Assembly (NCBI GenBank): GCA_018061035.1
Contig: JAGOUX010000001.1
Coordinates: forward strand, 6,817-70,816
Source: Minisyncoccota bacterium
GTDB lineage: Bacteria > Patescibacteriota > Minisyncoccia > Phycocordibacterales > UBA9973
Direction of reading: 5' to 3'
Length of the DNA stretch: 64,000 bases
In this document: positions 19,594 to 57,914 of the stretch, piece after piece
Numbering within the stretch: the stretch's first letter is position 1
Layout: each line of letters begins with the position of its first letter
Notes under the pieces: model-generated
Told to the model about the DNA's origin: nothing
Databases searched by the model: none
Seen by the model: the letters and a program-made list of their open reading frames with translations, nothing else
Translations under genes and position numbers: made by a program

Positions 19594-19713
19594 ATGAATC
19601 CCGTTAGAAGCCGCGGTCGCATTCATTTCAAAATAAATGCTTTTACTAATATCAAAAAAATTATTACTATAAAAAAGCTTAACCGCGGTGTTACAACCGC
19701 GACCTGCTTCTAA
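19594..19713 (+). other. Upstream ORF within MITE copy 1 (39 aa, MNPVRSRGR...TATCF)
   Basis: ATG supplied by the left TSD copy, open through the element, TAA inside the right TIR 5 nt before the topA ATG. Confidence 0.45.
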
Positions 19714-19718
19714 ACGGG
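19599..19718 (+). mobile_element. MITE-like element, copy 1 (between the topA promoter and the topA start)
   Basis: TIRs CCCGTTAGAAGCCGCGGTCGC / GCGACCTGCTTCTAAACGGG; 5-bp direct repeat ATGAA at 19594-19598 and 19719-19723. Confidence 0.7.
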
Positions 19719-21935
19719 ATGAAATTATTAATCGTAGAGTCACCATCAAAAGCTAAAACTATCGAGAAATATCTCGAGGGTTCTTATACTGTGCGCGCAT
19801 CAGTTGGACATGTGCGAGATCTTCCGAAATCCAACAAAAAGGCGATCGACATCGAAGCAGGATTTCTCCCCCATTACGAAATTTCTAAAGGAAAAGAAAA
19901 AGTAGTTCACGAACTACAAGGTTTAGCTGAAAAAGCAACGGAAATAATGCTTGCGACAGACCCCGACCGTGAAGGTGAAGCCATAGCTTGGCATATTGAG
20001 ACACTTCTCCATGCAGACAAGAAAGTTAAGGCTCCGATTCATAGAGTAGCCTTTCACGAAATCACCAAAGAGGCAGTTGAAGAAGCGCTCTCACATCCCC
20101 GCAAAATAGATACTGCACTTCGAAAGGCGCAAGAAGCGCGTCGGGTACTCGATCGACTCGTAGGCTACGATCTTTCAGGAATAATTTGGAAAAAAGTTCG
20201 CTATGGATTATCTGCAGGGCGAGTTCAATCCCCAGCTCTCCGTATTATTATGGAACGTGAACGTGAGATTCGAGCTTTTGTGCCAGAAAAGTACTGGAGG
20301 CTTTTTGGAATTTTTGAAACATCTAAAAAAGATAAGCTGACACTTGAGTGTAGCGAAGAGCCTCGTGATGAAAAATTAGTAAATAAAATATTAGAAGAAG
20401 GCAAAAAGGGTTCATGGATAGTAAAGGGAGTAAAAGAGTCTGAGCAAAAGAGATCTCCTCGTGCTCCATTTACCACATCGACACTTCAGCAAACCGCGAG
20501 CTCACGATTGGGCTACTCACCTTCTCGCACTATGCAGATCGCTCAGAAGCTCTACGAAGCAGGACATATCACATATATGCGTACAGATAGTACAAACCTT
20601 GGCGCTTCTGCTCAGAGCCAAATTCTGGCATTCGTAAAAAAGCAATACGGCCCGGAATATGCTGAAGCTCACATATATAAGACTAAATCTAAGAATGCTC
20701 AAGAAGCTCACGAAGCCATCCGTCCTACACATATAGAGAAGATGCATGCCGGCACTGAGGAGCAGAGCCGTCTGTATCAACTTATTTGGGAGCGAGCTAT
20801 CTCTTCTCAGATGACCGACGCAAAACTACTCAAGACAAAAATCACCGCTGTTATCGAAGGCCATGAAGACCTCCCAGAATTCGGAGCAGTTGGCTCAAGA
20901 TTACTTTTCCCAGGATGGCTTGCAGCTGATACAGGTGCTCGAGGTGAAGATGTGGAACTACCACTTGTAAAAGCCGGCGAAAAATTAAAACTACTTGATC
21001 TCACAAGTGAAGAGAAGTTTACCGAGCCACCAGGCAGATATTCAGAGGCAGGTCTTGTGAAGGAGCTTGAGAGTAGAGGCATTGGCCGACCGTCGACCTA
21101 CGCATCTATCATGCGCACAATCGAAGATCGTGGCTATGTACGCAAGGAAGGCAAAACATTGTTCCCCACCGACACTGGTGAAGTAGTTTCAGATTTTCTC
21201 GAAGCACATTTCGCAAATTATATCTCTGATACATTTACAGCAGAAATGGAAGATGAGCTCGATGAAATCTCTCGCGGTGAACGTGAGTACGAAAAAACTT
21301 TGAAGGATTTTTATGGTCCATTCCTAAAAGAAGTTAAAGCTAAAGATAAGTTGGAAAAAGCAACCAATTTGGGAGATGCCCCAGATGGCACAAAATGTCC
21401 CAAATGTGGAAGTACGATGATTATAAAATTATCCCGAGGCGGTAAATTTTATTCTTGCTCTAAGTATCCAGACTGTGATGGTGCTCTCATGCTCGATGGT
21501 ACTGAATTAAAAGGCCCAGAAGAAACCGGCGAAATGTGTCCTACATGTGGAGACAAGAAGGGCAAATCAGGTGGAGGCAAGCTTGTTGTTCGACAGCGAC
21601 GAGACGGAGGCGGAAGTTTTATATCTTGCTCACGATATCCAAAATGCAAATTTATCAAACAAGACGAAGCGGAACTCGCTCGCAAGCGCACTGGGGTATT
21701 GTGCCCTCTGTGCAAAACCGGTGATATATCCGAACGCCGAGGCAGATTCGGAATATTCTACTCATGCTCCAACTACCCAGACTGCAAATATGCAATCAAG
21801 GCCAAGCCAACTGGAAATATTTGTAAAGAATGCGGAGCACTCATGATGGAAGGTACTAAGACAATCCCCGAGAGATGTTCAAACAAAGCATGTAAAATGC
21901 ACAATCCTCACAAAATCCCAAAAATTGAATCATAG
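19719..21935 (+). CDS. topA: DNA topoisomerase I
   Basis: TOPRIM/Topo IA core plus four C-terminal C4 zinc-ribbon repeats (CPKCG...CSKYPDC etc.). Confidence 0.9.
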   Translation: MKLLIVESPSKAKTIEKYLEGSYTVRASVGHVRDLPKSNKKAIDIEAGFLPHYEISKGKEKVVHELQGLAEKATEIMLATDPDREGEAIAWHIETLLHADKKVKAPIHRVAFHEITKEAVEEALSHPRKIDTALRKAQEARRVLDRLVGYDLSGIIWKKVRYGLSAGRVQSPALRIIMEREREIRAFVPEKYWRLFGIFETSKKDKLTLECSEEPRDEKLVNKILEEGKKGSWIVKGVKESEQKRSPRAPFTTSTLQQTASSRLGYSPSRTMQIAQKLYEAGHITYMRTDSTNLGASAQSQILAFVKKQYGPEYAEAHIYKTKSKNAQEAHEAIRPTHIEKMHAGTEEQSRLYQLIWERAISSQMTDAKLLKTKITAVIEGHEDLPEFGAVGSRLLFPGWLAADTGARGEDVELPLVKAGEKLKLLDLTSEEKFTEPPGRYSEAGLVKELESRGIGRPSTYASIMRTIEDRGYVRKEGKTLFPTDTGEVVSDFLEAHFANYISDTFTAEMEDELDEISRGEREYEKTLKDFYGPFLKEVKAKDKLEKATNLGDAPDGTKCPKCGSTMIIKLSRGGKFYSCSKYPDCDGALMLDGTELKGPEETGEMCPTCGDKKGKSGGGKLVVRQRRDGGGSFISCSRYPKCKFIKQDEAELARKRTGVLCPLCKTGDISERRGRFGIFYSCSNYPDCKYAIKAKPTGNICKECGALMMEGTKTIPERCSNKACKMHNPHKIPKIES

Positions 21936-21959
21936 GAGTATAAGTGTTATCATTTCTAT

Positions 21960-23432
21960 ATGGAACAAACTATCAAGGAAATACTTGATCTCAACGGAAA
22001 CATGAATCCGAAGGAAATAGAGCTTATCAAAAAAGCCTACCAATTCGCGGAAAAGGCTCATTTTGGGCAGAAAAGAATGAACGGTGACCCATATTTTGTT
22101 CATGTACTTGAAACTGCCAAAATATTGGCGAAGCTGGGTATGGACTCTCAAACCATCGCAGCTGGTTTTTTACATGATGTACTTGAGGACACAGAAACAA
22201 CCGAGGAATCAATGCATAAGGAATTTGGAGGTGACATTGTATTTCTAGTGAATGGGGTCACGAAATTGGGAACACTCAAATACCGTGGACATGAAAGACA
22301 CGTTGAATCATTGCGTAAATTTTTTATCGCTATGGCTCTCGACCTGCGTGTAGTCATTATCAAATTTGCCGATAGATTGCACAATCTAAGAACCTTGCAA
22401 TACGTGCGTGAAGACAAAAGAGAACGAATTGCTCTTGAATCAATCGAAGTATACGCCCCACTAGCCAATAGGCTCGGTATGGGTAAATTGAAAGGCGACA
22501 TCGAGGATGCTGCCTTCCCTTTCGCTTTTCCAAAAGAGTACGCTGAAGTAGAGAACCTAATCAAAAACGAAAAAGAAAAATATGGTAAGTATCTCGAAGA
22601 AGTATCTCAAGAGCTGAACAAAGAACTTCAAAAAAATAAAATCAAAGTTGATGAAATCAGCTATCGCATAAAACATAAATATAGCTTATACAAAAAATTA
22701 CAACGGTATGATATGGATATCAGCAAAATATTCGACGTGGTAGCTCTCAGAGTCGTTGTCGACAACATAGAAGAATGCTACCGGGTACTTGGCTTGGTTC
22801 ACTCTATTTGGAATCCACTTCCTGGTAGGATAAAGGACTACATCGCTGTCCCAAAGCCAAATGGATACCGATCTATTCACACAACTATTTTTACTGGGTT
22901 GGGTGGTATAGCAGAAATTCAAATTCGAACCAAAGAAATGCATGCAGAAGCAGCTTATGGTATCGCTGCGCATTTTGCATACAAGGAAAATAGTAATAGC
23001 AAAAATAAACCAACTGACAATTCAAAATTTAAGTGGATTGAAGAGCTCAAGGAATTAAATTATTCCCCTGATGAACCAAAAAAATTTCTCGAGCACCTAC
23101 GTATGGATTTTTTTAATGATCGAATATTCGTCTTTACACCAAAAGGTGATGTTATAGATCTCCCAGACAATTCTACTCCCATTGATTTCGCATACAACAT
23201 TCACTCTGATGTTGGTGACCATGCACTAAGTGCAAAAATAAATGGCAAGATGTCCCAACTAACCACAGCGCTTAAAAATGGAGATATCGTTGATATTGCA
23301 GTCAACAAAAAAGCTCATCCGACAACCAAATGGTTAGAATCTGTAAAAACTAGTATAGCTAAAAAACACATCAAATCTTATCTCGAAAAGAATAGTCTTC
23401 TCGCTAGACTAAAATCTTTTGGGAGATCTTAA
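21960..23432 (+). CDS. (p)ppGpp synthetase/hydrolase (Rel/SpoT homolog)
   Basis: HD hydrolase domain (LHDVLEDT), RelA/SpoT synthetase domain and a TGS-like C-terminus; 490 aa, no ACT domain. Confidence 0.85.
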   Translation: MEQTIKEILDLNGNMNPKEIELIKKAYQFAEKAHFGQKRMNGDPYFVHVLETAKILAKLGMDSQTIAAGFLHDVLEDTETTEESMHKEFGGDIVFLVNGVTKLGTLKYRGHERHVESLRKFFIAMALDLRVVIIKFADRLHNLRTLQYVREDKRERIALESIEVYAPLANRLGMGKLKGDIEDAAFPFAFPKEYAEVENLIKNEKEKYGKYLEEVSQELNKELQKNKIKVDEISYRIKHKYSLYKKLQRYDMDISKIFDVVALRVVVDNIEECYRVLGLVHSIWNPLPGRIKDYIAVPKPNGYRSIHTTIFTGLGGIAEIQIRTKEMHAEAAYGIAAHFAYKENSNSKNKPTDNSKFKWIEELKELNYSPDEPKKFLEHLRMDFFNDRIFVFTPKGDVIDLPDNSTPIDFAYNIHSDVGDHALSAKINGKMSQLTTALKNGDIVDIAVNKKAHPTTKWLESVKTSIAKKHIKSYLEKNSLLARLKSFGRS

Positions 23433-24442
23433 ACGCTAAAATTAGAGATATTGTAGAGATTTGAATCGTCCTCCTTGATTTCATCTTTTGTTCGATCGTC
23501 CACTGGCGCTTCTTCTGTTGGTTGTGGAGAAGTGTCTCCTGTTGTGTCAGTGCCGACAACTTGTGTAGCAAGATTGGCAATGTGGTTTTCCATCATATCT
23601 TCTGGTTTCTTTTCTGCCGTAGACTTCTGTATTAAGTCCAAAATCTGACGAAGATCATCGGTGGAGAAATAATCAATCTTGATCTGTCCACCAAGTTCTT
23701 TGCGGTCAATGTGTACTCTAGTACCGAGCTTCTCTTGGAATTCTTCTTCGAGTTCTGTAATCTCTGGATCAGGCATGAATTCTTTTTTACGAACTCGATC
23801 ATATGCTATCTTGCGAGCCAAACGTTCAGCCTCTCTCACTGTAATCTTCTTGTAGACAATCTCTTTAAATAAAACTAACTGCTCTTCTGGGTGATCAGCG
23901 AGCATGAGTATCGGCCTGGTATGACCTTCGGTTATTTTTCCCTCAGACAATCCATTCAATATTTCTTCGGGTAATGCAAGGATACGAAGAGAATTAGAAA
24001 CATATTCTCGACTTCGTCCCATTTTCTTGGCAATTTCGGCATGAGTGAATTTGAACTCGGAGGCAAGTCGAAAAAATGCTCGAGCTCGGTCAACTGCATT
24101 GAGATCTTCGCGCTGAAGATTCTCAATAATGGCAAGCTCGAGCTTCATCATTGATGTATCACCTACTCGGATGATAGCCGGCACCTGAGTCACACCAGCG
24201 AGCTTGGCTGCGCGCAAACGGCGCTCTCCAGCGATAAGTTCATACTCAGTACTTAATCCGCCTTCTTCTTTTTCAACTTCTACTCTAGAAACAGTGAGAG
24301 GCTGAAGAACTCCATACTGTTTGATTGAGAGAGCTAGGTCTTCTAGACGTGCTTCGTCGAATTCACGTCTAGGTTGGTATGGATTCGGCTTGATCTTATC
24401 GGTGTCGATCCAGAAAATTGAATTGGAATATAGGTTGGACAT
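23429..24442 (-). CDS. parB: ParB/Spo0J-family partition protein
   Basis: ParB box GERRLRAAK, HTH region, acidic C-terminal tail. Confidence 0.8.
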   Translation of the reverse strand: MSNLYSNSIFWIDTDKIKPNPYQPRREFDEARLEDLALSIKQYGVLQPLTVSRVEVEKEEGGLSTEYELIAGERRLRAAKLAGVTQVPAIIRVGDTSMMKLELAIIENLQREDLNAVDRARAFFRLASEFKFTHAEIAKKMGRSREYVSNSLRILALPEEILNGLSEGKITEGHTRPILMLADHPEEQLVLFKEIVYKKITVREAERLARKIAYDRVRKKEFMPDPEITELEEEFQEKLGTRVHIDRKELGGQIKIDYFSTDDLRQILDLIQKSTAEKKPEDMMENHIANLATQVVGTDTTGDTSPQPTEEAPVDDRTKDEIKEDDSNLYNISNFSV

Positions 24443-24483
24443 GAAATGATTTTAACATATTAAAAAATATTTCGACAATTGAT

Positions 24484-24555
24484 CCCGTTAGAGATTATGT
24501 TAATTACTTGGGGAATAAAAGGTCAATTTTTATATATTTCTGGATCTCTAACGGG
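24484..24555. mobile_element. MITE-like element, copy 5 (short subfamily)
   Basis: Perfect 12-bp TIRs CCCGTTAGAGAT / ATCTCTAACGGG with a perfect 6-bp TSD ATTGAT at 24478-24483 and 24556-24561. Confidence 0.7.
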
Positions 24556-24604
24556 ATTGATTTTGAGTATAAATATGTGTATCATATGTGGATTAGCCCC
24601 TATT

Positions 24605-24688
24605 GCCCAGGTGGCGGAATTGGTAGACGCGATAGACTCAAAATCTATTGTTGGCAACAACATGAGAGTTCGATTCTCTCCCTGGGCA
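24605..24688 (+). tRNA. tRNA-Leu (anticodon CAA)
   Basis: Hand fold: acceptor GCCCAGG/CCUGGGC, anticodon loop CUCAAAA, long variable arm, T-arm GAGAG-UUCGAUU-CUCUC; 84 nt. Confidence 0.85.
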
Positions 24689-24783
24689 CAGAAACAGTAA
24701 ATTTATTTACTGTTGTGGAGAGATCGAAAGGATTTTCGTTGTTGAATGAAATGAAACCGAAAATCACCCGGCTAAGTAATAGC

Positions 24784-24806
24784 CGATTCTCTCCCTGGGC
24801 ACAGAG
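24784..24806 (+). repeat. Direct repeat of the tRNA-Leu 3' end (identical to 24671-24693)
   Basis: CGATTCTCTCCCTGGGCACAGA is repeated 113 bp downstream. Confidence 0.8.
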
Positions 24807-24819
24807 AAAATTAAACAAT

Positions 24820-26136
24820 ATGAAAAATAATACTGAGGATTTTGTAATAGAAGGCGGAAGGAAGCTTTCAGGTACGATCGAAACAAACACATCCAAAAAT
24901 GGCTCTGTGGGTCTTTTGTGCGCCGCATTGATAAATAAAGGCAAGACCACCCTTCATGGTATTTCTAAAATCGAAGAAGTCTACAGAGTCATCGAAATAC
25001 TAGAAAGTATCGGTGTCGATATTAAATGGGTTGGCGACCAAATCATCGAGATGCAACCACCAGCAAAGTTTAATCTCCGAGGTCTTGATCAGACAGCAGC
25101 ACTCAAAACTAGAAGCATCATCATGCTCGCTGGCCCGCTTATACACAATCTTAAATCCTTTTATCTTCCCCACGCTCAAGGTTGCAAACTCGGCAAACGC
25201 ACAGTTAGTGCTCATATCTACGGACTCGAAGAGCTAGGCGTAAAGATCAAGGTTACTAATCAAAACTATAATATTAGCTACAAAAAGCTTCACGCTCGAG
25301 AAATTATCATGTATGAATCTGGTGACACTGCATGCGAGAACCTCATCACCGCTGCTGCGCTAATACCCGGCAAAACTACTATAAAATTCGCCGCATCAAA
25401 TTATATGGTCCAGGAAGTATGTTTCTTTATGGAATCCTTGGGGGTTAAGATCGAGGGCATTGGTACTTCCACATTGGTAATCCATGGTGTCAAAGAGATC
25501 AACAAGGATCTCGAGTACTGCAATAGTGAAGATCCTATCGAATCTATGATGTGGATCACTGCTGCTATCGCTACAAATTCCGAACTTGAAATCAAACGCT
25601 GTCCTATAAATTTCCTAGAGCTAGAGCTTTATAAACTCAAAAAGATGGGTCTACGGTTTAAAGTTTCCCCTATTTACAAATCATACAATCACCGCACCAA
25701 CCTTGCCGATATAAAGGTTCTCCCTTCTAGGCTCAAAGCTCTCGAGGACAAGATCGAGGCACGTCCCTACCCAGGCATCAATATCGACAACCTTCCATTC
25801 TTTGGAATGATTGCCGCATGCGCCAAAGGTACAACTTTGATTCATGACTGGGTTTATGAAAATCGTGCAATTTACCTAACAGAATTAAATCGACTTGGTG
25901 GAACAGTACTTCTAGCAGATCCTCATAGAGTGTATGTGGAAGGTCCAACTAAGTGGAAACCAGGACAGCTAGTGTGCCCTCCTGCACTTCGTCCGTCTGT
26001 GGTTATCATGCTGGCTATGCTCGCAGCCAATGGTAATTCTACTCTTCACAATGTATATATGATCAAGCGCGGATATGAGGACATCGTAAACAGATTCAAC
26101 AGCATAGGTGCCAATATCAGATCAGTTCAGAACTAA
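24820..26136 (+). CDS. murA: UDP-N-acetylglucosamine 1-carboxyvinyltransferase
   Basis: EPT-fold MurA-like sequence. The ORF-track N-terminal extension runs through tRNA-Leu and is spurious; the start is the ATG at 24820. Confidence 0.85.
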   Translation: MKNNTEDFVIEGGRKLSGTIETNTSKNGSVGLLCAALINKGKTTLHGISKIEEVYRVIEILESIGVDIKWVGDQIIEMQPPAKFNLRGLDQTAALKTRSIIMLAGPLIHNLKSFYLPHAQGCKLGKRTVSAHIYGLEELGVKIKVTNQNYNISYKKLHAREIIMYESGDTACENLITAAALIPGKTTIKFAASNYMVQEVCFFMESLGVKIEGIGTSTLVIHGVKEINKDLEYCNSEDPIESMMWITAAIATNSELEIKRCPINFLELELYKLKKMGLRFKVSPIYKSYNHRTNLADIKVLPSRLKALEDKIEARPYPGINIDNLPFFGMIAACAKGTTLIHDWVYENRAIYLTELNRLGGTVLLADPHRVYVEGPTKWKPGQLVCPPALRPSVVIMLAMLAANGNSTLHNVYMIKRGYEDIVNRFNSIGANIRSVQN

Positions 26137-26143
26137 AACTACT

Positions 26144-26223
26144 CCCGTTAGAAATTCTATGATTGGAAACTTTACTAAAAGTGATATAACAATGGAAATG
26201 CGAAGCATTTCCTATTTCTAACG
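26144..26223 (+). mobile_element. MITE-like element, copy 6 (short TIR, between murA and miaA)
   Basis: TIRs CCCGTTAGAAAT / ATTTCTAACG, no clear TSD; the reading frame CCC GTT AGA ... TTC TAA is open throughout. Confidence 0.55.
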
Positions 26224-26225
26224 TG

Positions 26226-27101
26226 ATGCAAAAAGTTTTTGTTATACTCGGGCAAACAACTACCGGCAAGAGTGCTTTGGCGGTAAAATTGGCAAAGAAA
26301 ATTAACGGAGAAATTATCTCTGCTGATTCACGGCAAGTATACACAGGTCTGAATATAGGTAGCGGAAAAGTAACAAAAAAAGAAATGGCTGGTGTCCCCC
26401 ATCATTTGCTTGATGTTGTGAGCCTAAAGAAAAAATTCTCTGTTGCTGAATATCAAAAATTAGCAAATAGTGTAATCACTGAAATTATAAAGCGAGGTAA
26501 GGTACCAATTATAGTTGGCGGAACGGGGTTCTATATTGATGCTGTAACCAAAGGCATAGTCTTACCCGAAGTACCACCCAATCCTAAGCTACGCAAAGAG
26601 CTAGAGAAGAAGAGCCTGTCTCAATTGGTGACAATGCTCAAAAAGCTCGATCCCGCGCGAGTAAAAAATATTGATGTGAAAAATAAAGTACGCTTAATCC
26701 GAGCCATAGAAATATCCAAGACGCTTGGGAAGGTACCAAAAATTAAAATCATGAAACCCGCATATGAATTCGTGCAGTTAGGATTATTTCTCCCCGAGAA
26801 GAAATTGAGGTCAAAAATATCTACTCGTCTCAAATCTAGAATGACTCAAGGAATGCTTCGTGAAGCAAAGAGTTTAAATAAAAATGGTCTGTCGTGGAAG
26901 CGCATGCGAGAGCTAGGATTGGAATACAGATTTATGGCTCTTCATCTAGAAGGAAAAATTAACAAAAAAGAAATGATAGAGAAGCTAGAGAAAGAGATAT
27001 ATCAATACGCCAAACGCCAAATGACTTGGTTCAAGAGAGATCAGAGTATTATTTGGTTTGACGCTTCCAAGAAAATTAGCCTTCGTAAAATTGGTGTATA
27101 A
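26226..27101 (+). CDS. miaA: tRNA dimethylallyltransferase
   Basis: P-loop GQTTTGKSALAV and DSRQVY motif. Confidence 0.85.
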   Translation: MQKVFVILGQTTTGKSALAVKLAKKINGEIISADSRQVYTGLNIGSGKVTKKEMAGVPHHLLDVVSLKKKFSVAEYQKLANSVITEIIKRGKVPIIVGGTGFYIDAVTKGIVLPEVPPNPKLRKELEKKSLSQLVTMLKKLDPARVKNIDVKNKVRLIRAIEISKTLGKVPKIKIMKPAYEFVQLGLFLPEKKLRSKISTRLKSRMTQGMLREAKSLNKNGLSWKRMRELGLEYRFMALHLEGKINKKEMIEKLEKEIYQYAKRQMTWFKRDQSIIWFDASKKISLRKIGV

Positions 27102-27102: not shown

Positions 27103-27108
27103 GCCCAG

Positions 27109-27189
27109 ATGGATTCCGTTAGAAGCCGCGGTCGCAATTACAATCAAATAACCTTAAGTAGTCTCGGTCTGACCGCGACCTGCTTCTAA
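27109..27189 (+). other. Upstream ORF within MITE copy 2 (26 aa, MDSVRSRGR...TATCF)
   Basis: Starts at the ATG of the left TSD copy and ends at a TAA in the right TIR 4 nt before the murI ATG. Confidence 0.45.
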
Positions 27190-27192
27190 CGG
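27115..27192 (+). mobile_element. MITE-like element, copy 2 (inserted at the murI start codon)
   Basis: TIRs CCGTTAGAAGCCGCGGTCGC / GACCGCGACCTGCTTCTAACGG; 7-bp TSD GATGGAT at 27108-27114 and 27193-27199. Confidence 0.75.
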
Positions 27193-27193
27193 G

Positions 27194-27910
27194 ATGGATG
27201 CACGACCGATTGGAGTTTTTGATTCAGGTATAGGAGGACTGACAGTTCTCAAGGAACTACAAAAGGCTATGCCAAATGAGAATTTCATATACCTAGCAGA
27301 TCAGGCTCACTTACCGTATGGAAACAAAAGCAAAAAAGAACTGATAGGCATAACTAGCACTATCATGAATTACTTCCTCACAAAGGATGTGAAGCTTGTA
27401 GTTATAGCTTGCAACACTGCTACTGCAAATACCATCGATGCCCTTCGCAAGAAATATTCTCTACCCATTGTTGGTACAATTCCTGCAGTTAAGCCCGCAG
27501 CAGAAAATACAAAGACTGGAACTATCGCGGTATTATCTACACCCGCAACAGCAAAAAGTTCTGCTTTGAAGAAATTGATCAGACAGTATTGCCGAGGAAT
27601 AAAAGTGCTCAACATTCCCTGCCCCGATCTAGTTGCTCAAATAGAAAAAGGCGACCTAGATAGTACAAAAACAAAGAAACTTTTGGAAAAATACCTCAAG
27701 CCCGTAATAGATTCAAATGCTGACCATGTTGTCCTTGGATGTACCCATTACCCACTTCTCAAGAAACAGATGCAAAAAATATTAGGAAGAAAAGTAAAAA
27801 TTATAGACTCGGGAACAGCCATTGCAAAAAGAACAAAACATATTCTACAACGGGAAAATATAGAAAATAAAACTAGGGGTAAGACTATTTACCAAACTAC
27901 ACTTACTTAA
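27194..27910 (+). CDS. murI: Glutamate racemase
   Basis: VFDSGIGGLTV and GCTHYP motifs. Confidence 0.85.
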   Translation: MDARPIGVFDSGIGGLTVLKELQKAMPNENFIYLADQAHLPYGNKSKKELIGITSTIMNYFLTKDVKLVVIACNTATANTIDALRKKYSLPIVGTIPAVKPAAENTKTGTIAVLSTPATAKSSALKKLIRQYCRGIKVLNIPCPDLVAQIEKGDLDSTKTKKLLEKYLKPVIDSNADHVVLGCTHYPLLKKQMQKILGRKVKIIDSGTAIAKRTKHILQRENIENKTRGKTIYQTTLT

Positions 27911-34693: not shown

Positions 34694-35707
34694 TTACTTC
34701 TTACTTAATACTGTTTTCTTATATACGTCCAAGTGATCGAGTGCTATGCCTGTACCTTTGACAACACAAAATAATGCATCCTCTGCTAGATTTGCCTTTA
34801 CTCCAGTCTTGCGATATACGAGATCAGTAAGATTGCGGAGCTGAGATGAGCCACCAGTCATGATTATTCCGTGATCCATGATATCAGAAGCCAATTCGGG
34901 TGGAGTCTCCTGAAGTACGTCCTTAATAGCTTTAATAATTTGTTTCAATTCTCCATCAATAGCTCTAACTATTTCATTTGTACCTACCTGAGCGCTTCGA
35001 GGCAAGCCTTGTATAAAATCTCTACCTTTGATTGTTACTCTTAGTTCTTCATCGAGAAGTATTGCTGCTCCAATTTTAATTTTAACTTCTTCGGCTGTTC
35101 TATCACCAATGGCTAGGTTGAAAGTTTTTTTAATATAGTCTGCGATAGCTTGATCAATTTTATTGCCAGCACACTTTACAGAAGTAGAAGCAACGATTCC
35201 GCCAAGCGAAATCACAGCTACGTCTGTGGTGCCTCCGCCTATGTCTACTACCATATACCCTTTTGATTCATATATGGGAATTCCCGCACCGATAGCTGCC
35301 AAAATCGGCTCTTTGACGACATAAGCATTTCTAGCGCCTGCGCGAATTGCAGCTTCTACCACTGCTCGACGTTCGGTCGAAGTCACTCCAGCTGGCACAG
35401 AGACCATCACATCTGGTTTGAAAAAATTCCATTTACCCATAGCCTTGCTGATAAAATATCTGAGCATTGCTTCAGTCACTCGATAATCCGCAATGACTCC
35501 ATCCTTCATCGGACAATATGTAATAATAGATTCGGGTGTCTTGCCGATCATATCTTTCGCTTCGAAACCAATAGCTAAAATTTTATTATCTTGCTCTGAA
35601 ACTGCTACCACTGATGGTTCATTTAATACTATTCCTTTGCCGGGCATAAATACGAGCGTATTTGCAGTACCCAAATCTATTCCTAATTTCTTTGAAAAAA
35701 TACCCAT
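34694..35707 (-). CDS. mreB: Rod-shape-determining protein MreB
   Basis: Actin-fold MreB sequence (GIDLGTANT, DIGGGTTD). Confidence 0.9.
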   Translation of the reverse strand: MGIFSKKLGIDLGTANTLVFMPGKGIVLNEPSVVAVSEQDNKILAIGFEAKDMIGKTPESIITYCPMKDGVIADYRVTEAMLRYFISKAMGKWNFFKPDVMVSVPAGVTSTERRAVVEAAIRAGARNAYVVKEPILAAIGAGIPIYESKGYMVVDIGGGTTDVAVISLGGIVASTSVKCAGNKIDQAIADYIKKTFNLAIGDRTAEEVKIKIGAAILLDEELRVTIKGRDFIQGLPRSAQVGTNEIVRAIDGELKQIIKAIKDVLQETPPELASDIMDHGIIMTGGSSQLRNLTDLVYRKTGVKANLAEDALFCVVKGTGIALDHLDVYKKTVLSKK

Positions 35708-35821
35708 CCCGTTAGAAGCAGGTCACGGTTGAATAACCGTGATTTAGCTTGATTATCTTATTAAATTTTTGAAGTTTGATTATCATTTTTTCTTAATATT
35801 GTGACCACTATTTCTAACGGG
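35708..35821. mobile_element. MITE-like element, copy 3 (abutting the mreB start codon)
   Basis: TIRs CCCGTTAGAAGCAGGTCACGG / TGTGACCACTATTTCTAACGGG; perfect 6-bp TSD ACCCAT at 35702-35707 and 35822-35827. Confidence 0.7.
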
Positions 35822-35863
35822 ACCCATGAAAGTAATATAACACATATATGCTAGAATAAAAGC

Positions 35864-43182: not shown

Positions 43183-43258
43183 CCCATTATAAATTTTAAT
43201 TAATAATCTTTCATTATTTTATCCTGCCCGTTCAATTTATAACGGGTCAAGTATAATT

Positions 43259-45756: not shown

Positions 45757-45758
45757 AA

Positions 45759-50930: not shown

Positions 50931-51021
50931 CAGGTCTTCGCCTTTCGCTTAAACCAAAGTACACCAAGAACTAATTACAAAAATATTCTACATCAGTAAA
51001 AATTTTGTGCAATATAAGATT

Positions 51022-51993
51022 TTATTCCTCGTCTTCTGTTCCCTCTTCTCCAGACTCTAGTGCAGAAAAAATATCTTCCATATAACCTTCGAGTATCTTT
51101 GGCAGATTGTGCCAGGATTTCTTGAGTCTGTGGTCTGTGATTCTGTCTTGTGCGAAATTATAAGTGCGGATTTTTTCTGAACGATCACCAGAACCAATCT
51201 GATTCTTGCGAACACCGGCATACTTGGCAGCTTCCTTTTCTTCTTCGAGCTGTTGAAGCTTGGCCATCAATATACCCATAGCTTTCTCACGGTTTGCTAG
51301 CTGGCTTCGTTCATTAGTAGAACGCACATCTATGCCAGTAGGTTTGTGAATCAATCGCACCGCGGTCTCCACCTTATTCACGTTCTGTCCGCCCTTTCCA
51401 CCAGAGCGAGAATACTCCATTTCAATATCAGAAGGATTAACTTCAAAATTTACTTTTTTGCGGATAGGCAACACTGCGACAGATGCAGTAGAGGTATGCA
51501 CACGGCCGTTTTTCTCGGTAGCGGGCACTCTCTGTACTCGGTGCACGCCTGTCTCATATCGCATCATCTTATATACATCTTTCCCACGTATTTCAAAGCT
51601 GGCTTCTTTATATCCACCTTGGTCACTCTTGGATTCATAATTGGTCTTCCAATTCCATCCTCGCATTTCAGAGAATTTTTCATACATGTGTGCCAGCTCC
51701 CATGCGAACAAAGATGCCTCGTCTCCTCCGGCACCTGCTCGCACTTCTAGGACGATCTCATTTGGAGATTCTTCCTCTTCTTTATCTTTCGCAAGGATAT
51801 CTTCAATCTGACCTTCTACTGCTTCTCGCTCGAGCTGTATGCCCTTCAATTCCTCAGCTGCAAGATCATGCAGTGTCGCATCACCTGCAAGCATTTCTCG
51901 CACTTCTGCCTCCTGACGCATAAGGCGCTCCAAATTTCCTGCGAGATAATTCGTACGGTGGTCTTTCTTTAATTCATCTATATTTAATTCCAT
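51022..51993 (-). CDS. prfA: Peptide chain release factor 1
   Basis: GGQ motif ([13 protein letters not shown]) and the PAT tripeptide (RVPATE) diagnostic of RF1; start taken at MELNIDEL. Confidence 0.85.
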
Positions 51994-52059
51994 AAATTGA
52001 TATATTAATTCTATCACACAAAGCAAAAACACCCTGCAAATACAGGGTGTCCATGGTGT

Positions 52060-52281
52060 TTATTTCTTTGCTTTGGTAGCGACAAGAGCTCGGCGCTTGT
52101 TGAATCGATCTACGCGTCCTGCTGTGTCCATGATCTTTTCGTTACCTGTATAGAATGGATGGCAAGAACTGCAGATTTCCATACGGATTTCTGGCATAGT
52201 TGAGCCAACCTCAAAGACTGCTCCGCATGCGCAGATTGCCTTTGTTTTGATATCATATTTTGGGTGAATGTCTTTTTTCAT
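52060..52281 (-). CDS. rpmE: 50S ribosomal protein L31
   Basis: MKKDIHPKY...CxxC...C pattern. Confidence 0.9.
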   Translation of the reverse strand: MKKDIHPKYDIKTKAICACGAVFEVGSTMPEIRMEICSSCHPFYTGNEKIMDTAGRVDRFNKRRALVATKAKK

Positions 52282-52400
52282 TCCGTTAGAGATAGAAAAT
52301 CTTTAGATTTTCGTAATTAAATTACTCCTAATAAACAAAATAACCAATTCGATTAGTTATTATTCATGAATTCCATTAAACCAATAGATCTCTAACAGAA
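52282..52400. mobile_element. MITE-like element, copy 7 (abutting the rpmE start codon)
   Basis: TIRs TCCGTTAGAGAT / ATCTCTAACAGA (one mismatch); 5-bp TSD TTCAT at 52277-52281 and 52401-52405. Confidence 0.65.
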
Positions 52401-52427
52401 TTCATGTCCTTAGACTTTATCACACAA

Positions 52428-53801
52428 TTACGACGAAAGCAAATCTATATTGGCCTGAATGGTCGCCCGAAGTTTGGCGACACTATTACCATACGAACAG
52501 CTAGAACCCCCTGAACCATAGTATCTGCAAGCTGCTTTCTTTTGAGCGCTTTCACTTGTGCCTACAGCACCTAAATCTGTCAGATACATACCAGAGGCCA
52601 TGAAAGCATCTTTTGGTGCCCAAGGATTTGCTTCATAGCCCAATATTGCTTTTAATCTCGAAGCAAATAACTGCCAAGTCGAAGGTATAAATTGTGCAGG
52701 ACCCATAGCTCCACCATAACCAGCCACTCCGGCTATAGGGCAAGATACTGCAGTATTATATGGATTTAAATTCAATCTACTAGTAATAGCTAAAAATGGT
52801 TCGACGTCTCGTGTAGGTTTCATGAGATTTGTCCAAACTTTACCAGTCTTAATATTTTTTCCATAGCCTATATTAGGACCAGTACTATCAGTGAGATAGC
52901 ATTGTCCCACATTTGAACCGAGATTACTTTCTTGGGTCAATATTGCCAATAGGAAAGCTGGGTCAACACCTGTCTTTTTACTTACATCATTTGCATAAAG
53001 CAAGGCTGTACCGAATTCAATCTTTTGAGAAATACCTGCGAGCGAGAAAAGAGCACTTCGAATTTTGTCAGCTTGGGCTTTTTTCTCTGCGGCTAATTTC
53101 TGATAAGCTGCTTCTTGATTCTTTGAAATTTGAAGCAACTTTTTTTTGTCCGCTTCTGATTGTGCTACTTTCTTTTGAGCACTTTCCAATTCAGCCTTGG
53201 CGTCTGTCTCGGCATCTTGTTTGGCTTCCAAATCTTTCTTGGCGACCTCGGTATCAGATTTAATTCCCTTGATATTGTCTACTGATACTTTGACCGCCTC
53301 TTTGATAGTGGAATATGACTCTAGGTCACTATAAAAATCAGAAATGCTTTCATCACCGAGGACCACATGTAAAATATTGGCATTATCAAATTCATTAGTA
53401 TTTCGAATTAATTGAGCGATAGACTCGTGCTCTCGTTCGATTTTAGCATTCAAACTTCCAATTTGTTTAGACTTTTCAGTTATAGAAACTTTCAACTGAG
53501 CTATTACCAAAGCTCGGGCTTTGATCTTTGTTTTAAGAGCATTGATTTGACTGGTGAGATAATCCACATCACCTTTTAGTGTACCAGTTTGCTTTTGCTG
53601 TTCTTTTTGCTTGGCTATGAGTTCTGCTAATTGATTTTCTATTTGAGTAAGCTCATTTCGACAATAATCCTTATCAGAATTACTCGAAGAAGGAGTAATA
53701 TTGAGACAATCCACAGCAAAAGCCTTGGGAATAGCCAAATATCCAGCCGTAATAAGCATTATTGAAAATATAAAAATAAAAACTATGGTCTTCTTTGCCA
53801 T
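52428..53801 (-). CDS. Secreted coiled-coil protein with C-terminal lytic-transglycosylase-like (SLT/GEWL-like) domain
   Basis: Signal/TM segment, long coiled-coil, then AILTQESNLG (ES catalytic-Glu motif); a PcsB-like architecture. Confidence 0.45.
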   Translation of the reverse strand: MAKKTIVFIFIFSIMLITAGYLAIPKAFAVDCLNITPSSSNSDKDYCRNELTQIENQLAELIAKQKEQQKQTGTLKGDVDYLTSQINALKTKIKARALVIAQLKVSITEKSKQIGSLNAKIEREHESIAQLIRNTNEFDNANILHVVLGDESISDFYSDLESYSTIKEAVKVSVDNIKGIKSDTEVAKKDLEAKQDAETDAKAELESAQKKVAQSEADKKKLLQISKNQEAAYQKLAAEKKAQADKIRSALFSLAGISQKIEFGTALLYANDVSKKTGVDPAFLLAILTQESNLGSNVGQCYLTDSTGPNIGYGKNIKTGKVWTNLMKPTRDVEPFLAITSRLNLNPYNTAVSCPIAGVAGYGGAMGPAQFIPSTWQLFASRLKAILGYEANPWAPKDAFMASGMYLTDLGAVGTSESAQKKAACRYYGSGGSSCSYGNSVAKLRATIQANIDLLSS

Positions 53802-53838
53802 AGTTCTTATTGTACCATATTTGAGATAAAAATTTGAA

Positions 53839-54492
53839 TTATTTTGCGTCTGGAGTAGCTTCTCCTGCACCTTCTTCTTCTTTCTTACCTTTCTTTTCTA
53901 CTTCGATAGCAGATAGATCAACTGGAGCTGCTTCTTCTTCTTTTTCTTCAACCTGAGCAACGATAGAAGCGACAACTTCTGTAGCCGGAGTTATAGCTTC
54001 AACACCTGATGGAAGCTTGATGTCAGCAACAGTTACTACATCTTCGAGAGTATTCAATCCTGTGACATCTGCAACAAGATTATGAGGAAGATCCTTAGGA
54101 AGAGCTTCGATTTCGATTTCGTGTAGAACCTTAACAAGGTTACCAATTCCACTCTTCACAGCTCCGGCTACACCTTCGAATTCGAGAGGAACATTGACCT
54201 TGATCTTCTTCTTCATGTCGATAGCAAGGAAGTCAGCATGTATAGGCTCGCTAGTAACAGGGTCTACCTGCACATCGTGGATAAGTACATCTACATCTCC
54301 TTCTGGAGTTGAGACAACAATAGCAGAAGACTCTCCGGCATCTCTCCAAACCTTCTTAAAATCAACAATAGATACAGAGATAGAAGTAGTTTCCTTGCCT
54401 GCTCCGTAAAAAACAGCAGGGATTTCTCCCCCTTTTCTTAGAACATCTAGTTTTACTCCCTCATCTCGCTTTTTAGCTTTGATTACAAACAT
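53839..54492 (-). CDS. rplY: 50S ribosomal protein L25 / general stress protein Ctc
   Basis: N-terminal KAKKRDEGVKLDVLRKGGEIPAVFYG; long form with acidic C-tail. Confidence 0.8.
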   Translation of the reverse strand: MFVIKAKKRDEGVKLDVLRKGGEIPAVFYGAGKETTSISVSIVDFKKVWRDAGESSAIVVSTPEGDVDVLIHDVQVDPVTSEPIHADFLAIDMKKKIKVNVPLEFEGVAGAVKSGIGNLVKVLHEIEIEALPKDLPHNLVADVTGLNTLEDVVTVADIKLPSGVEAITPATEVVASIVAQVEEKEEEAAPVDLSAIEVEKKGKKEEEGAGEATPDAK

Positions 54493-54623
54493 ACAGACAA
54501 GTATATACAAAAAATTTAAAAAAGCAAATAAAAAAGCCGTCAGTGCTCTTCCGTGGAAGTCTTAACGACTTTGACTATATGGACGCGGTAGGCAAGCCTT
54601 GTTCTGCCTGCCTACCGATATCT

Positions 54624-55070
54624 CTATCCGAACATGACCTCGAAGCCAGCTTCCTTGGCCTCGCGGACGAGGAATGCCTCCGTCATGGAATCATCCCCAA
54701 AACTCGGAAGAAAGAGCTTTGGCGCTGGCTTCTCGTCCGTATTCTTCCGACGGGCACGAGGCCGAGCTGAGACGAGTCCGTGCTCCTTCCACTCGTGCTC
54801 ACCCGTGTACTGAACCAGCCAGAGATACGACGCACCGATGCCAGCCACTTGATGACTCTCTGGGATGTACGGAACGCACGCCCAAGTGCAGCCGTGCAAG
54901 GCCGTACGAAGCTCCGGCAACGGATTGATCCGAAACCGGTAGCCGACATCGAGGTGCGACTGGATCAGTCGAAGCGCGTCCGACAAAACCAAGCGACCCC
55001 CGGGGTCAGGCTGTCCATCCAGCATCGCCATGAGACGATGATGAAAACTACGATTACTCTCTTTGTGCAT
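54624..55070 (-). CDS. Hypothetical protein (GC-rich island D)
   Basis: 148-aa GC-rich ORF; GC hairpin GGTAGGCA...TGCCTACC downstream. Confidence 0.35.
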   Translation of the reverse strand: MHKESNRSFHHRLMAMLDGQPDPGGRLVLSDALRLIQSHLDVGYRFRINPLPELRTALHGCTWACVPYIPESHQVAGIGASYLWLVQYTGEHEWKEHGLVSARPRARRKNTDEKPAPKLFLPSFGDDSMTEAFLVREAKEAGFEVMFG

Positions 55071-55188
55071 GGGGCTCTCCCACAGTCTCGCGGACTAGCT
55101 CACCCTTGGAACGATTCCCTCGAAGCTCTGGTGACGAGCTTGTGCATTACGAAAATTACCATACCACATTTATAGGAAAAAGACAACC

Positions 55189-56901
55189 CTAGACCTTGTG
55201 CTCGACTTTATGTTCTATAGCTAAATGAGAAGAAATATATTCCCTTGTTCCCCCTTCCTTTTCCGTTGGAACTTTCTTGCCGGGGTTTAAAATATTCTTT
55301 GGATCGAAAGCAAACTTGATATCCTTGAATATAGCGGTGACTCTCGCGCCAAACATCTTTTCTAGATATGGTGTGCGGATAATACCGTCATTGTGCTCCG
55401 CAGTAATCGAGCCATGATAATGCATCACGAGATCATAGACCTTGTCAGAAAGCTCGGTGATAATTTGGGCAGTATCAGGCCGTGAGAAATCCATGAGCGG
55501 AATGATGTGAAAATTGCCATCACCAGCATGACCAGCGATAGTATAGGTCAGATCGTATTTGCTCAATATTTTATTAAGCTCTGGTATGAATTTAGGTAGG
55601 AATTCTGGGCGCACGATGATGTCGTCGATGAATGGAGCAGTTCTTTTGCCTTTCACATGCTTGCGAAGAAGCGCAAAGCTGTCTCTGCGAATATCCCAAT
55701 ATTTATTTGCTTCAGATTCGTTCTTGGTTATGTGGGTCTTAAGGCCGAAAGGCTTGATTTTTGCGACCAATGCCTCGCATTTCTTTTGTACTTCTTCTTC
55801 GCTATTGCCGGCAAATTGCGCGAGGATCACCATCTTTGGGAATCCGCCACGAACCATCATGAAAAATTCCGGCAAGAATGACCACATCATTTTAAACATA
55901 CCCACGAGTCCTTTGTTCTTTAAAAAATCTGGGAAGAACTTCACTGCAAGTGCCAAAGTCTTGTCGTCATAAGTCTCCAAGGTTTCGGGATCCAGGGTCA
56001 GCATCTCATCTACGAGTCTGCCGAGAGGCATAAGGTCCTGCATGAATACTGCCACGAGCTTGGTGTGCTTGATGTCCGGCAATACTTTGAAAGTTATTTC
56101 GGTAACTATGCCGAGAGTACCCTGAGAGCCGACGAGTAATTTGTTCAAATCAAACATGCCATTCGCTGTCATCACATTCCAGATATAATATCCGGCGGAA
56201 TTTTTGCTCACCTTTGGCTTCGCTTCCTTTATTTCCTCTTTGTTCTTCTCGATCAGATTATAAATCTGCTTATACACTTCTCCTTCGAAGGATTTCTCTG
56301 CCATTTTTTGCGCGAGCTCCTTGAGATTTAATGGCTTAACCACATATTCATTACCATCAGAGAAAATAACTTTTGCCGAAAGTACATAATCTTCTGTTTT
56401 ACCGTATTTGAGTGTTCGCTCACCTGCAGAATTGTTGCCATACATACCACCCATAGCATTGAGACTCTTTGATGCGGTATAGCAAGGCAATATCAAACTC
56501 TTCTCGAGGGTTATCTTTTCAAAATCACGGTAATACATACCAGGCTGGACCGTTATAGAATATTCCTTTTGAGTTAGGCTTCCAGGATATTTCTGAGGAA
56601 TGTGATCAATGAATTTCACCAAGTGATTCATATATCTGGTGAAGTCGAGAATGATCGACGGCCCTATCGCCCCTCCAGACATATCTGTGCCGGCACATCT
56701 TGCAGTGATCGAAAGAGTTGGGCGAACCTTTTTGGTGTAGTTGACCCATTTTACGATGTTCTGAACATCCAATGAATCCTTGGGATATAGCACGAGCTTC
56801 GGCTTCACCTCTAGTAGGCTCGCGTCGTGAGAATATTTATTGAGAGTCTCTCGGCTATCATCGACATCTCCCTTGAAAAATTTTTTAATTTCGTCTTTCA
56901 C
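55189..56901 (-). CDS. FAD-linked oxidase (GlcD / D-lactate dehydrogenase / alkyl-DHAP-synthase-like)
   Basis: FAD_binding_4-type N-terminal domain and a large C-terminal cap; 570 aa. Confidence 0.7.
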   Translation of the reverse strand: MKDEIKKFFKGDVDDSRETLNKYSHDASLLEVKPKLVLYPKDSLDVQNIVKWVNYTKKVRPTLSITARCAGTDMSGGAIGPSIILDFTRYMNHLVKFIDHIPQKYPGSLTQKEYSITVQPGMYYRDFEKITLEKSLILPCYTASKSLNAMGGMYGNNSAGERTLKYGKTEDYVLSAKVIFSDGNEYVVKPLNLKELAQKMAEKSFEGEVYKQIYNLIEKNKEEIKEAKPKVSKNSAGYYIWNVMTANGMFDLNKLLVGSQGTLGIVTEITFKVLPDIKHTKLVAVFMQDLMPLGRLVDEMLTLDPETLETYDDKTLALAVKFFPDFLKNKGLVGMFKMMWSFLPEFFMMVRGGFPKMVILAQFAGNSEEEVQKKCEALVAKIKPFGLKTHITKNESEANKYWDIRRDSFALLRKHVKGKRTAPFIDDIIVRPEFLPKFIPELNKILSKYDLTYTIAGHAGDGNFHIIPLMDFSRPDTAQIITELSDKVYDLVMHYHGSITAEHNDGIIRTPYLEKMFGARVTAIFKDIKFAFDPKNILNPGKKVPTEKEGGTREYISSHLAIEHKVEHKV

Positions 56902-56934
56902 GAAGATAATTATAGCACCTTTATACTTTAGATT

Positions 56935-57789
56935 TTATTTTATACCGTTGAAAAGTTTCAGTCTGGCTTCCACAACAGCTTCAACTGCATCCTCAGCAGG
57001 TTGCAAAATCTTTGCAGGAGTAATTTCTTCTGTATGTTCTGATAACGACTCTTTTACAGCATCACGGAAAGCCAAGCGAAGCTCAGAGTTAATGTGCACT
57101 ACTGAAATTCCTGCCTTGATAGCATTGGTAAAGTCTTCATCCCTAAGTCCTGATCCACCATGAAGTACCAGCGGAATTTTTACCGCATCTTTTATTTTTT
57201 TTACCAGTTCCGCATCTATGTGCGGTTTGCCACTCTTGATAAGGCCATGAATACTACCGACAGACGGCGCGAACATATCTATACCAGTTTCTTCCACAAA
57301 TCTTTTTGCATCCTCGGGTGTAGTCAGTACTCCTGCGCCTTCAGGTATAGTTTCTTTGATATCTGAGCCTGACCCGATATATCCGAGTTCTGCTTCTACT
57401 AGAACCTCGCGTCCAATCATTCGCGCATATATTACGCACTCCTTAGTGACTTTTACATTCTCTTCAAAGCTAAGCTTGGCTCCATCAATAATAACCATAT
57501 CAAAGCCAGCATCAATCGAGGCCTTCACAGACTCAAAGCTTGAATGATGATCGGCATTTAGAAATATCGGATAATCATCTCTGGTGCGGATAGCCTGCAC
57601 GAGAGCAACTGCCTCCTCTCTGCCCACAAATTTCTCTTCACCCTCAGAAACTCCGATTATCACCGGCACATTTAGCTTCTTTGCCGCATTGTAGATGGCA
57701 TGAAGGGCCTCTAAATTTGAAATATTAAAATGTCCAATAGCTACACCCTTATCTTCTGCTTCTTTTATATATTCTCTGAGTGATTTCAT
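56935..57789 (-). CDS. fba: Fructose-bisphosphate aldolase class II
   Basis: KGVAIGHFNISNLE, GVSEG and HGGSG motifs. Confidence 0.9.
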   Translation of the reverse strand: MKSLREYIKEAEDKGVAIGHFNISNLEALHAIYNAAKKLNVPVIIGVSEGEEKFVGREEAVALVQAIRTRDDYPIFLNADHHSSFESVKASIDAGFDMVIIDGAKLSFEENVKVTKECVIYARMIGREVLVEAELGYIGSGSDIKETIPEGAGVLTTPEDAKRFVEETGIDMFAPSVGSIHGLIKSGKPHIDAELVKKIKDAVKIPLVLHGGSGLRDEDFTNAIKAGISVVHINSELRLAFRDAVKESLSEHTEEITPAKILQPAEDAVEAVVEARLKLFNGIK

Positions 57790-57905
57790 TCCGTTAGAGG
57801 CAGGTCGCGATCTTCGCTTCCTGTAAATTATTTATAATGTAGTTAGTAGTAATAATGTTATTAATTAATCTTAATGGTATTTTGTGACCGCGGCCTCTAA
57901 CGGAA
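57790..57905 (-). mobile_element. MITE-like element, copy 4 (abutting the fba start codon)
   Basis: TIRs CCGTTAGAGGCAGGTCGCGA / TGTGACCGCGGCCTCTAACGG; 5-bp TSD TTCAT at 57785-57789 and 57906-57910. Confidence 0.7.
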
Positions 57906-57910
57906 TTCAT
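57794..57910 (-). other. Upstream ORF within MITE copy 4 (38 aa, MNSVRGRGH...IATCL)
   Basis: ATG from the TSD copy, open through the element, TAA in the TIR, then 4 nt (CGGA), then the fba ATG. Confidence 0.45.
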
Positions 57911-57914
57911 GATT

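Follow-up and report, generated by a model that had tools for sequence, protein, structure and literature searches.

The piggyBac transposon generates a 4-bp target-site duplication, owes its TTAA specificity to a T0-A3 hydrogen bond in an unpaired, bent target and excises seamlessly (PMC7351741), and it has been paired with IS1380 as its prokaryotic counterpart (PMC5718144). Its terminal sequence, CCCTAGAAAGATA, is confirmed in the literature. IS1380 elements have "CC" ends and 4-5-bp duplications. Among the short repeats of bacteria, the Correia/NEMIS elements of Neisseria are co-transcribed as hairpins with their neighbours and their ends can supply or restore expression signals, and the palindromic elements of Rickettsia are mobile repeats of a reduced genome. 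Translational coupling, or termination-reinitiation, on leaderless or Shine-Dalgarno-less mRNAs is an established mechanism as well. Here, we describe a family of MITEs (miniature transposable elements with inverted repeats) that recalls each of these systems in part. It was met in a stretch of 64,000 nucleotides from a Minisyncoccota bacterium (contig JAGOUX010000001.1 of assembly GCA_018061035.1, positions 6,817 to 70,816 of the forward strand), which is called the window throughout.

The elements form a large and previously undescribed MITE family that is spread widely through groundwater and sediment metagenomes and is expanded in the present genome. In this host, the copies persist almost only on the "punctuation" of genes, six at a start codon (A|TGRA) and one at a -35 box (TTGA|YA). 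The key feature, absent from the original prediction that had drawn attention to these repeats, is that the copies rebuild the very signals on which they sit. At start codons, the duplicated TGRA and the terminal A (or G) of the element together rebuild an ATG (or GTG) directly before the coding sequence, and the original ATG remains behind its native promoter, upstream of the element. At the -35 box, the duplicated TTGA rebuilds the hexamer. All seven elements of the original prediction were found where it had placed them, with their inverted termini; they are 74-121 bp long with inverted termini of 10-22 bp, and the terminal inverted repeat of the family reads (T/C)CCCGTTAGA...TCTAACGGG(A/G). 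In the window, the octamer CCGTTAGA is found 11 times where 1.4 would be expected, and none of the shuffles reached 11. The six start-codon copies precede topA (E1), miaA (E3), murI (E4), mreB (E5), the ribosomal protein L31 gene (E6) and fba (E7). Coordinates of the copies, their duplications and their upstream open reading frames (ORFs) are as follows.

E1, long form: 19599..19719, plus strand; its last base, A 19719, is the A of the topA start codon.
E1 duplication TGAA: 19595-19598 and 19720-19723; the ancestral ATG is kept at 19594-19596.
E1 upstream ORF: 19594..19713, plus strand; from the kept ATG through the whole of E1, MNPVRSRGR...TATCF*; its stop is the TAA of the right repeat, with 5 nt to the topA ATG.
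E2, short form: 24483..24556, plus strand; inside the -35 box of the tRNA-Leu/murA promoter.
E2 duplication TTGA: 24479-24482 and 24557-24560.
E3, degenerate short form: 26143..26226, plus strand; adjoins the miaA start (ATG at 26226); right repeat mutated (TCTAACGTGA).
E4, long form: 27114..27194, plus strand; in the 7-nt miaA-murI junction; its terminal A 27194 is the A of the murI ATG.
E4 duplication TGGA: 27110-27113 and 27195-27198.
E4 upstream ORF: 27109-27189; MDSVRSRGR...TATCF*, open throughout.
E5, long-form-like: 35707..35822, minus strand; adjoins the mreB start (ATG 35707-35705).
E5 duplication TGGG (minus strand): 35703-35706 and 35823-35826.
E5 ancestral ATG copy: 35827-35825; preceded by a TGtTATATT -10 box; the upstream ORF ends early.
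E6, short form: 52281..52400, minus strand; adjoins the ribosomal protein L31 start (ATG 52281-52279; Pfam Ribosomal_L31); one repeat mismatch; the upstream ORF ends early.
E6 duplication TTCA (TGAA on the minus strand): 52277-52280 and 52401-52404.
E7, long form: 57789..57905, minus strand; in the 4-nt gatB-fba junction.
E7 duplication TTCA (TGAA on the minus strand): 57785-57788 and 57906-57909.
E7 upstream ORF: 57910-57794, minus strand; MNSVRGRGH...IATCL*, open throughout; ends 4 nt before the fba ATG.

The flanking direct repeats of the original prediction are real, but their length is not 5-7 bp as it had stated. The duplication is a fixed 4 bp, namely TGAA, TTGA, TGGA, TGGG, TGAA and TGAA in six of the seven window copies, and the longer "duplications" at the start-codon copies were the start codon with the next few bases. 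The extra matching bases beyond 4 bp come from the terminal A of the element and from chance. In fact, in eleven metagenome copies with C...G ends the upstream duplication copy reads ATGAA and the gene-proximal one GTGAA, thus the fifth base belongs to the element and is not duplicated. In E3 no duplication was detectable, as the original prediction had implied.

Metagenomes were scanned with the pattern CCGTTAGAR, 51-111 nt, YTCTAACGG, of which the start codon is not a part, and at least 120 further loci were found, many of the copies coming from groundwater of the Hainich or Rifle type. The duplications are reproducible beyond the window, with flanking repeats examined in more than 100 copies from other genomes. 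An identical 4-mer at a fixed offset flanked 80 of 131 metagenome copies among the matches listed, against 0 of 40 elements in viral contigs, whose 38 pattern matches were almost all due to chance and which were therefore used as the chance control. Among the matches listed, 75 of the 80 duplications have the form T-N-N-A and TTAA itself was found once. Moreover, the elements recur in independent assemblies (L001, L002 and L241-L245, with E4 identical in L001 and L002), so they are not assembly artefacts. Full-text literature searches gave nothing relevant on the terminal sequence, or on MITEs tied to start codons, leaderless mRNAs or the Candidate Phyla Radiation, and an Rfam scan gave no matching family, only the four tRNAs being matched. 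Like the Correia/NEMIS elements, the copies are short and apparently non-autonomous, lie scattered between genes, and have both terminal inverted repeats and target-site duplications. In Correia elements, however, the duplication is TA, the interior is conserved and there is no link to start codons, whereas the present family duplicates T-N-N-A, conserves its arms alone and is placed exactly on a start codon or -35 box that it rebuilds.

The rebuilding follows from the ends of the elements. In T...A-ended copies, the final A and the duplicated TGNN re-create an ATG and the original one stays upstream; in the eleven C...G-ended start copies, the gene now begins with GTG. Read in the orientation of the gene, the right end TCTAACGG(G/A) directly adjoins the start codon in 6 of the 7 window copies. 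E2 splits the -35 hexamer of the tRNA-Leu promoter, and the promoter that a scanner places there, TTGATT-N17-TATCAT (24557-24585), starts exactly at the right duplication. In the metagenomes, all six sites of the TTGA/TCAA type that could be examined continue in the same way, with TTGA(C/T)A, 17 nt and then TAATAT or TATAAT. A copy was counted as lying at a start site if the ORF whose start codon it adjoined had 50 codons or more. By this measure, among the matches listed, start codons were the site of 28 of 34 copies with T...A termini and of 32 of 34 copies (94%) with a TGAA, TTCA, TGGA or TCCA duplication; both copies in locus L015 are at start codons too. In a sequence-only null built on the window, start codons make up 29% of the usable TGRA sites and 58% of the ATGRA sites (p=2e-15 and p=3e-6), hence the association with start codons is stronger than a mere preference for the sequence would give. 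The third common class, with 31 copies among the matches listed, has the sites G|TAAA or TTTA|C. Targeting of stop codons was considered for it and rejected, since only 7 of the 31 lie at the end of a long ORF and their surroundings showed nothing in common.

The original prediction named two outcomes that would refute its reading of the repeats as mobile MITEs, irreproducible flanking repeats and orthologous sites that are never empty. Both checks favoured mobility: the duplication is reproducible, and empty orthologous sites were found in relatives at topA, mreB and the tRNA-Leu promoter. At topA, ten relatives (among them L040, L034, L044, L005 and L013) keep aaatttgc...tttcgtgtaatact (...ttcgtgtaatact), followed by 8-10 nt and then ATGAAA. 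At mreB, L032, L043, L034, L010, L003 and L018 have TATATT, 6-8 nt and then ATGGG, and the tRNA-Leu promoter is uninterrupted in L036, L033, L029, L014, L009 and L044 (ATTGATTTT-N13-TGTG-TAnAAT). At all three loci, the upstream duplication copy of the window lies at the position that is uninterrupted in the relatives, and at topA and mreB the upstream ATG copy has the position of the relatives' start codon. Such intact empty sites fit both sites that were never entered and sites from which a copy was excised. Presence and absence did not vary among near-identical strains, as all contigs with an exact MurI or L31 protein carry the element (E4 and E6), and no other record with the exact MreB or Fba protein was found. 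The original prediction had called the density unusual for a reduced genome. In comparison with the relatives examined this is true, as 80 relatives gave about 5 copies in 1.23 Mb, a patchy distribution, whereas these 64 kb have 7-9.

As a separate observation, the promoter and start region of topA has been hit repeatedly in relatives. L041 (4480-4745) has a long-form copy at the same topA A|TGAA site, with a 1-nt insertion in the right repeat at the same spot as in E1, and in L033 and L036 a short-form copy lies within the conserved -10 region, about 14-16 nt upstream of the topA ATG.

The genes of the window include dprA, topA, relA/spoT, parB, murA, miaA, murI, mreB, priA, prfA, fba and gatB. 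This gene content, together with a MurA identity of 77% to the closest loci, makes the host Candidatus Nomurabacteria-like, within the Candidate Phyla Radiation. Judging from its start regions, it appears to be poor in Shine-Dalgarno motifs and rich in leaderless-type starts. Among 60 window genes, a TANNNT box stands exactly 6 nt before the ATG in 22% (a sharp peak), often as an extended TGn -10 box, and a Shine-Dalgarno-like 4-mer is found in 8%. Such low use of Shine-Dalgarno motifs agrees with a published survey in which only 48% of Parcubacteria had a detected anti-Shine-Dalgarno motif (PMC9297842). The genes targeted by the elements are similar, in that 23 of 49 have TANNNT 6-9 nt ahead of the upstream ATG, often as TGnTAnnnT, and a Shine-Dalgarno-like motif occurs in 7 of 49. 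The targets of E4 and E7 are operon junctions of 4-7 nt.

The terminal repeats are built in such a way that the retained upstream ATG can be read into the element. It opens the only stop-free frame through the left repeat (ATG AAT CCC GTT AGA), and in the right repeat one frame stops 4 nt before the start (GC TTC TAA), the second stops at a TGA that overlaps the start as ATGA (GGA TGA) and the third gives an in-frame fusion (GGG ATG). The 49 non-redundant start-site copies fall into 43 clusters of unrelated interiors and are thus effectively independent; in 21 of them, the frame in use is free of stops through the interior, compared with 13% in five control frames and 11% in shuffles (p=3e-7). 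In a paired test within elements, 18 were open only in the orientation of the gene and 2 only in the opposite one (p=4e-4). Moreover, the length class that gives an in-frame fusion is depleted at start sites (14 of 61 versus 39 of 83 elsewhere). The long form, with its arms AGAAGC-CGC-GGTCGC and GCGACC-T-GCTTCT, has the same arm beside the gene in 11 copies and the other arm in 0, and its ATG-to-ATG distance is typically 118 nt. Of 14 long-form copies, 10 have the TAA of the right repeat in frame and 7 keep the frame open throughout, giving an ORF of the form M[ND][PS]VR[SG]RGR...TATCF* with a non-alignable interior.

These features suggest termination and re-initiation through the element. 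In a host that does without Shine-Dalgarno motifs, and with a -10 box 6-9 nt before the ATG of many targets, the transcript would probably start at or near the upstream AUG. The ribosome would start at this AUG, translate through the hairpin-forming element, stop at the UAA of the right repeat or at the UGA that overlaps AUGA, and then re-initiate at the rebuilt start codon; copies blocked by their frame or orientation would probably be purged by selection. The arrangement resembles known translational coupling in that the stop of the upstream ORF lies 4-5 nt ahead of the AUG or shares bases with it as AUGA, with no Shine-Dalgarno motif and with a -10 box 6-9 nt before the upstream AUG. It would differ in being created by the insertion of a transposon and built into its terminal repeat. 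Like the Rickettsia palindromic elements, they are palindromic mobile repeats of a reduced genome, and they too would be translated by the host with essential genes left intact. However, the Rickettsia elements enter coding sequences in frame and end up within the protein itself, whereas the present family would form an upstream ORF, separate from the protein and closed just ahead of the rebuilt start, its in-frame fusions being depleted. Ribosome bypassing of the T4 gene 60 type was rejected as unneeded, given that the downstream copy already provides a start codon, next to which most frames stop. A tRNA-like RNase Z site yielding a leaderless mRNA was rejected as well, because the terminal purine pairs with the left-end pyrimidine (C:G / T:A co-variation) and is therefore not a free discriminator base, and TCTAAC as a -10 box is a poor match.

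As to the enzyme, piggyBac/IS1380 is the closest mechanistic match by analogy, which we offer as a lead and not as a claim of membership. The termini of both begin with CCC (piggyBac CCCTAGAAAG, family CCCGTTAGAAAG), and seamless excision would explain the intact empty sites. The 4-bp duplication of the family resembles that of piggyBac in its outer positions, T at position 1 and A at position 4, but its two central bases vary. Taken together, the CCC termini, a duplication of the T..A type and empty sites that look seamless could point to a piggyBac/IS1380-like enzyme acting in trans. Perhaps the family is adapted to the starts of Shine-Dalgarno-less leaderless genes, its terminal base and 4-bp duplication being tuned to regenerate ATG or GTG and all three frames of its right repeat being productive, so that an insertion would convert a leaderless gene to re-initiation after a transposon-borne upstream ORF. 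Possibly it is, in addition, the first MITE family of prokaryotes to be moved by a piggyBac-like enzyme, at T..A within the easily melted DNA of promoters and starts. We put forward this wider proposal tentatively and think the odds are rather against it.

For the whole account, namely a mobile MITE family that sits on start codons or a -35 box and rebuilds these signals, probably with read-through and re-initiation, we would put the probability at roughly 60%. Several results weigh against it. The interiors of the window copies are mutually unalignable despite an apparently lineage-specific expansion. The elements are too short for a transposase and, judging by their size, are probably non-autonomous, as the original prediction had suggested. 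The full-length autonomous partner for which it had proposed to look did not appear, since no autonomous copy or transposase was found in the 2.9 Mb of fetched DNA. In the same DNA there was no ORF of at least 250 aa bracketed by family termini, long pairs of which enclose housekeeping genes only (murG, ftsW, murC, prfA, a sigma factor and glycosyltransferases), and a local phmmer search of the 2.9 Mb for an ISEcp1-like protein gave nothing, at limited sensitivity. The promoter scanner showed no enrichment, save for the tRNA-Leu promoter beside E2. With the strictest, GC-matched control, which pooled non-start copies and start-site copies read in the opposite orientation, the excess of open frames is modest (33% versus 19%, p=0.03). 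The frame stops early in more than half of the start-site copies, E5 and E6 included, and re-initiation cannot therefore be the sole route to expression. Stem mismatches showed no sense-strand excess of G.U (14 versus 13 A.C) and no sign of selection for a hairpin at the RNA level, thus the conservation of the arms looks like a DNA-level effect, as recognition by a transposase would give. Finally, part of the start-codon bias could come from a preference of the transposase for ATGRA and from the loss of insertions inside genes.

A rival explanation is a purely parasitic MITE with a preference for A|TGRA. The enrichment at starts would then be a by-product, since A|TGRA sites inside genes are lethal targets and intergenic ones are rare in a 93%-coding genome, and an ATGRA target already predicts about 58% at starts. 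Translation would simply begin at the downstream start, independently of a Shine-Dalgarno motif, as this host initiates without one anyway, and the upstream ORF would serve no function. The early stops in more than half of the copies, found even before essential genes such as mreB and the L31 gene, and the stem mismatches without RNA-strand asymmetry favour this view too. Nonetheless, the observed 94% at starts exceeds the ATGRA null, the paired asymmetry of orientation and frame is 18 to 2, the length class giving in-frame fusions is depleted at start sites, and the long-form arms are oriented 11 to 0 with a conserved frame. In addition, the family uses other T-N-N-A targets elsewhere (TAAA, TTGA). 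We regard the purely parasitic explanation as unlikely, although it survives better than the remaining ones.

Another explanation is that the copies are domesticated RNA regulators, 5' hairpins that control the stability, processing (for example by RNase III) or translation of the mRNA and whose arms are kept for that purpose. As RNA, all seven elements form a long hairpin closed by the terminal repeats (-24 to -39 kcal/mol, z -2.8 to -5.5), and the terminal base pair of the predicted fold includes the A of AUG. The arms are conserved while the interiors are unalignable, the orientation of the arms is fixed relative to the gene, and small sub-terminal hairpins accompany the gene-proximal arm, all of which would suit a regulator. 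The lack of asymmetry between G.U and A.C and of any Rfam match speaks against it, relatives manage without the elements at the same genes, and recognition by a transposase predicts the conservation of the arms equally well; we find this explanation improbable. The small hairpins lie just inside the gene-proximal arm (E1 19681-19704, E3 26194-26212, and also within E5 and E6), with GGAAATGC-GAA-GCATTTCC and CACGGTT-ATTC-AACCGTG as examples. Those of the long form share bases with the arm and might form at the expense of the main stem; some of the small hairpins were flagged as terminator-like by a scanner.

The least credible explanation, an ancestral non-mobile palindrome or another repeat class (REP/REPIN with RAYT, IS200/IS605-type or integron attC), accounts for elements that are palindromic, intergenic, variable in length and without a nearby transposase, but it stands against a fixed 4-bp duplication in 80 of 131 copies among the matches listed and three empty orthologous sites. 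REP/REPIN and IS200/IS605 elements, which are not known to make a target-site duplication and have sub-terminal hairpins in place of terminal inverted repeats, are ruled out by the consistent 4-bp duplication and the true terminal inverted repeats, and attC needs RYYYAAC...GTTRRRY, whereas the order of the family is always GTT...AAC (GTTAGA...TCTAAC in both orientations, as the arms are inverted), which is the wrong core order.

The window also has two copies of a variant with the termini CCCGTTATA...TATAATGGG (63783-63846 and 43183-43246).

V1: 63783..63846, plus strand; CCCGTTATAAATT...AATTTATAATGGG; adjoins the ATG of a membrane-protein gene (MQIIWILLG...).
V2: 43183..43246, minus strand; adjoins the ATG of an atpG-like gene (MAGTKEIKRRIKSV...).

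V1 and V2 are a 64-nt variant, CCCGTTATAAATT...AAAGATTATTAATTAAAATTTATAATGGG, whose right 32 nt are common to both, and ACTTG(T/A) precedes each of them. Neither has a duplication, and the variant was not found in any other fetched locus. They are probably related to the main family.

Further observations concern the family at large. A large subgroup with C...G termini and GC-rich interiors (CAGCGGGGCAT...), with L086, L087, L110, L114, L116, L120, L127, L131 and L132 among its members, always lies at G|TAAA or TTTA|C; the base before its left duplication is always the same as the terminal G of the element, and no common gene context was found. Locus L145 carries two inverted copies of one element (7081-7184 and 9138-9241), each splitting a TTGACA -35 box, on either side of about 2 kb that encode a sigma-70-like factor and a 428-aa membrane protein, a layout like that of a composite transposon. 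In L103, near-identical tandem copies (617-704 and 713-798) are separated by only GGTGAACC, the second having apparently inserted at the duplication of the first. In L015 (9797-11308), from a Paceibacterota relative, the start codon directly preceded by a family element is that of a MurA with an N-terminal extension of about 65 residues resembling an XRE-type helix-turn-helix (…GMTQDEFAKALSTSQSAVARMEKGEQ…). The repeated short palindromes GTTAGAACGTTTGTTCTAAC of the viral loci L223 (6247-6325) and L235 (8385-8463) are chance matches to the pattern that look operator-like and are unrelated to the family.

In the Candidate Phyla Radiation, bacterial genomes are tiny and about 93% coding, and mobile elements are considered scarce there. 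The family described here shows a route by which a transposon can spread in such a genome, that is, by landing where its own ends rebuild the interrupted start codon or -35 hexamer. If the route through the upstream ORF is true, a mobile element would in nature have rewired the way in which leaderless genes initiate translation, and gene calling in these genomes would be affected, with GTG starts after some insertions and a spurious short ORF in front. The 9-10-bp terminal motif together with the T..A duplication makes an easy marker, which could serve to study transposition and excision in uncultivated lineages. Moreover, the family may link bacterial MITEs to the piggyBac/IS1380 superfamily.

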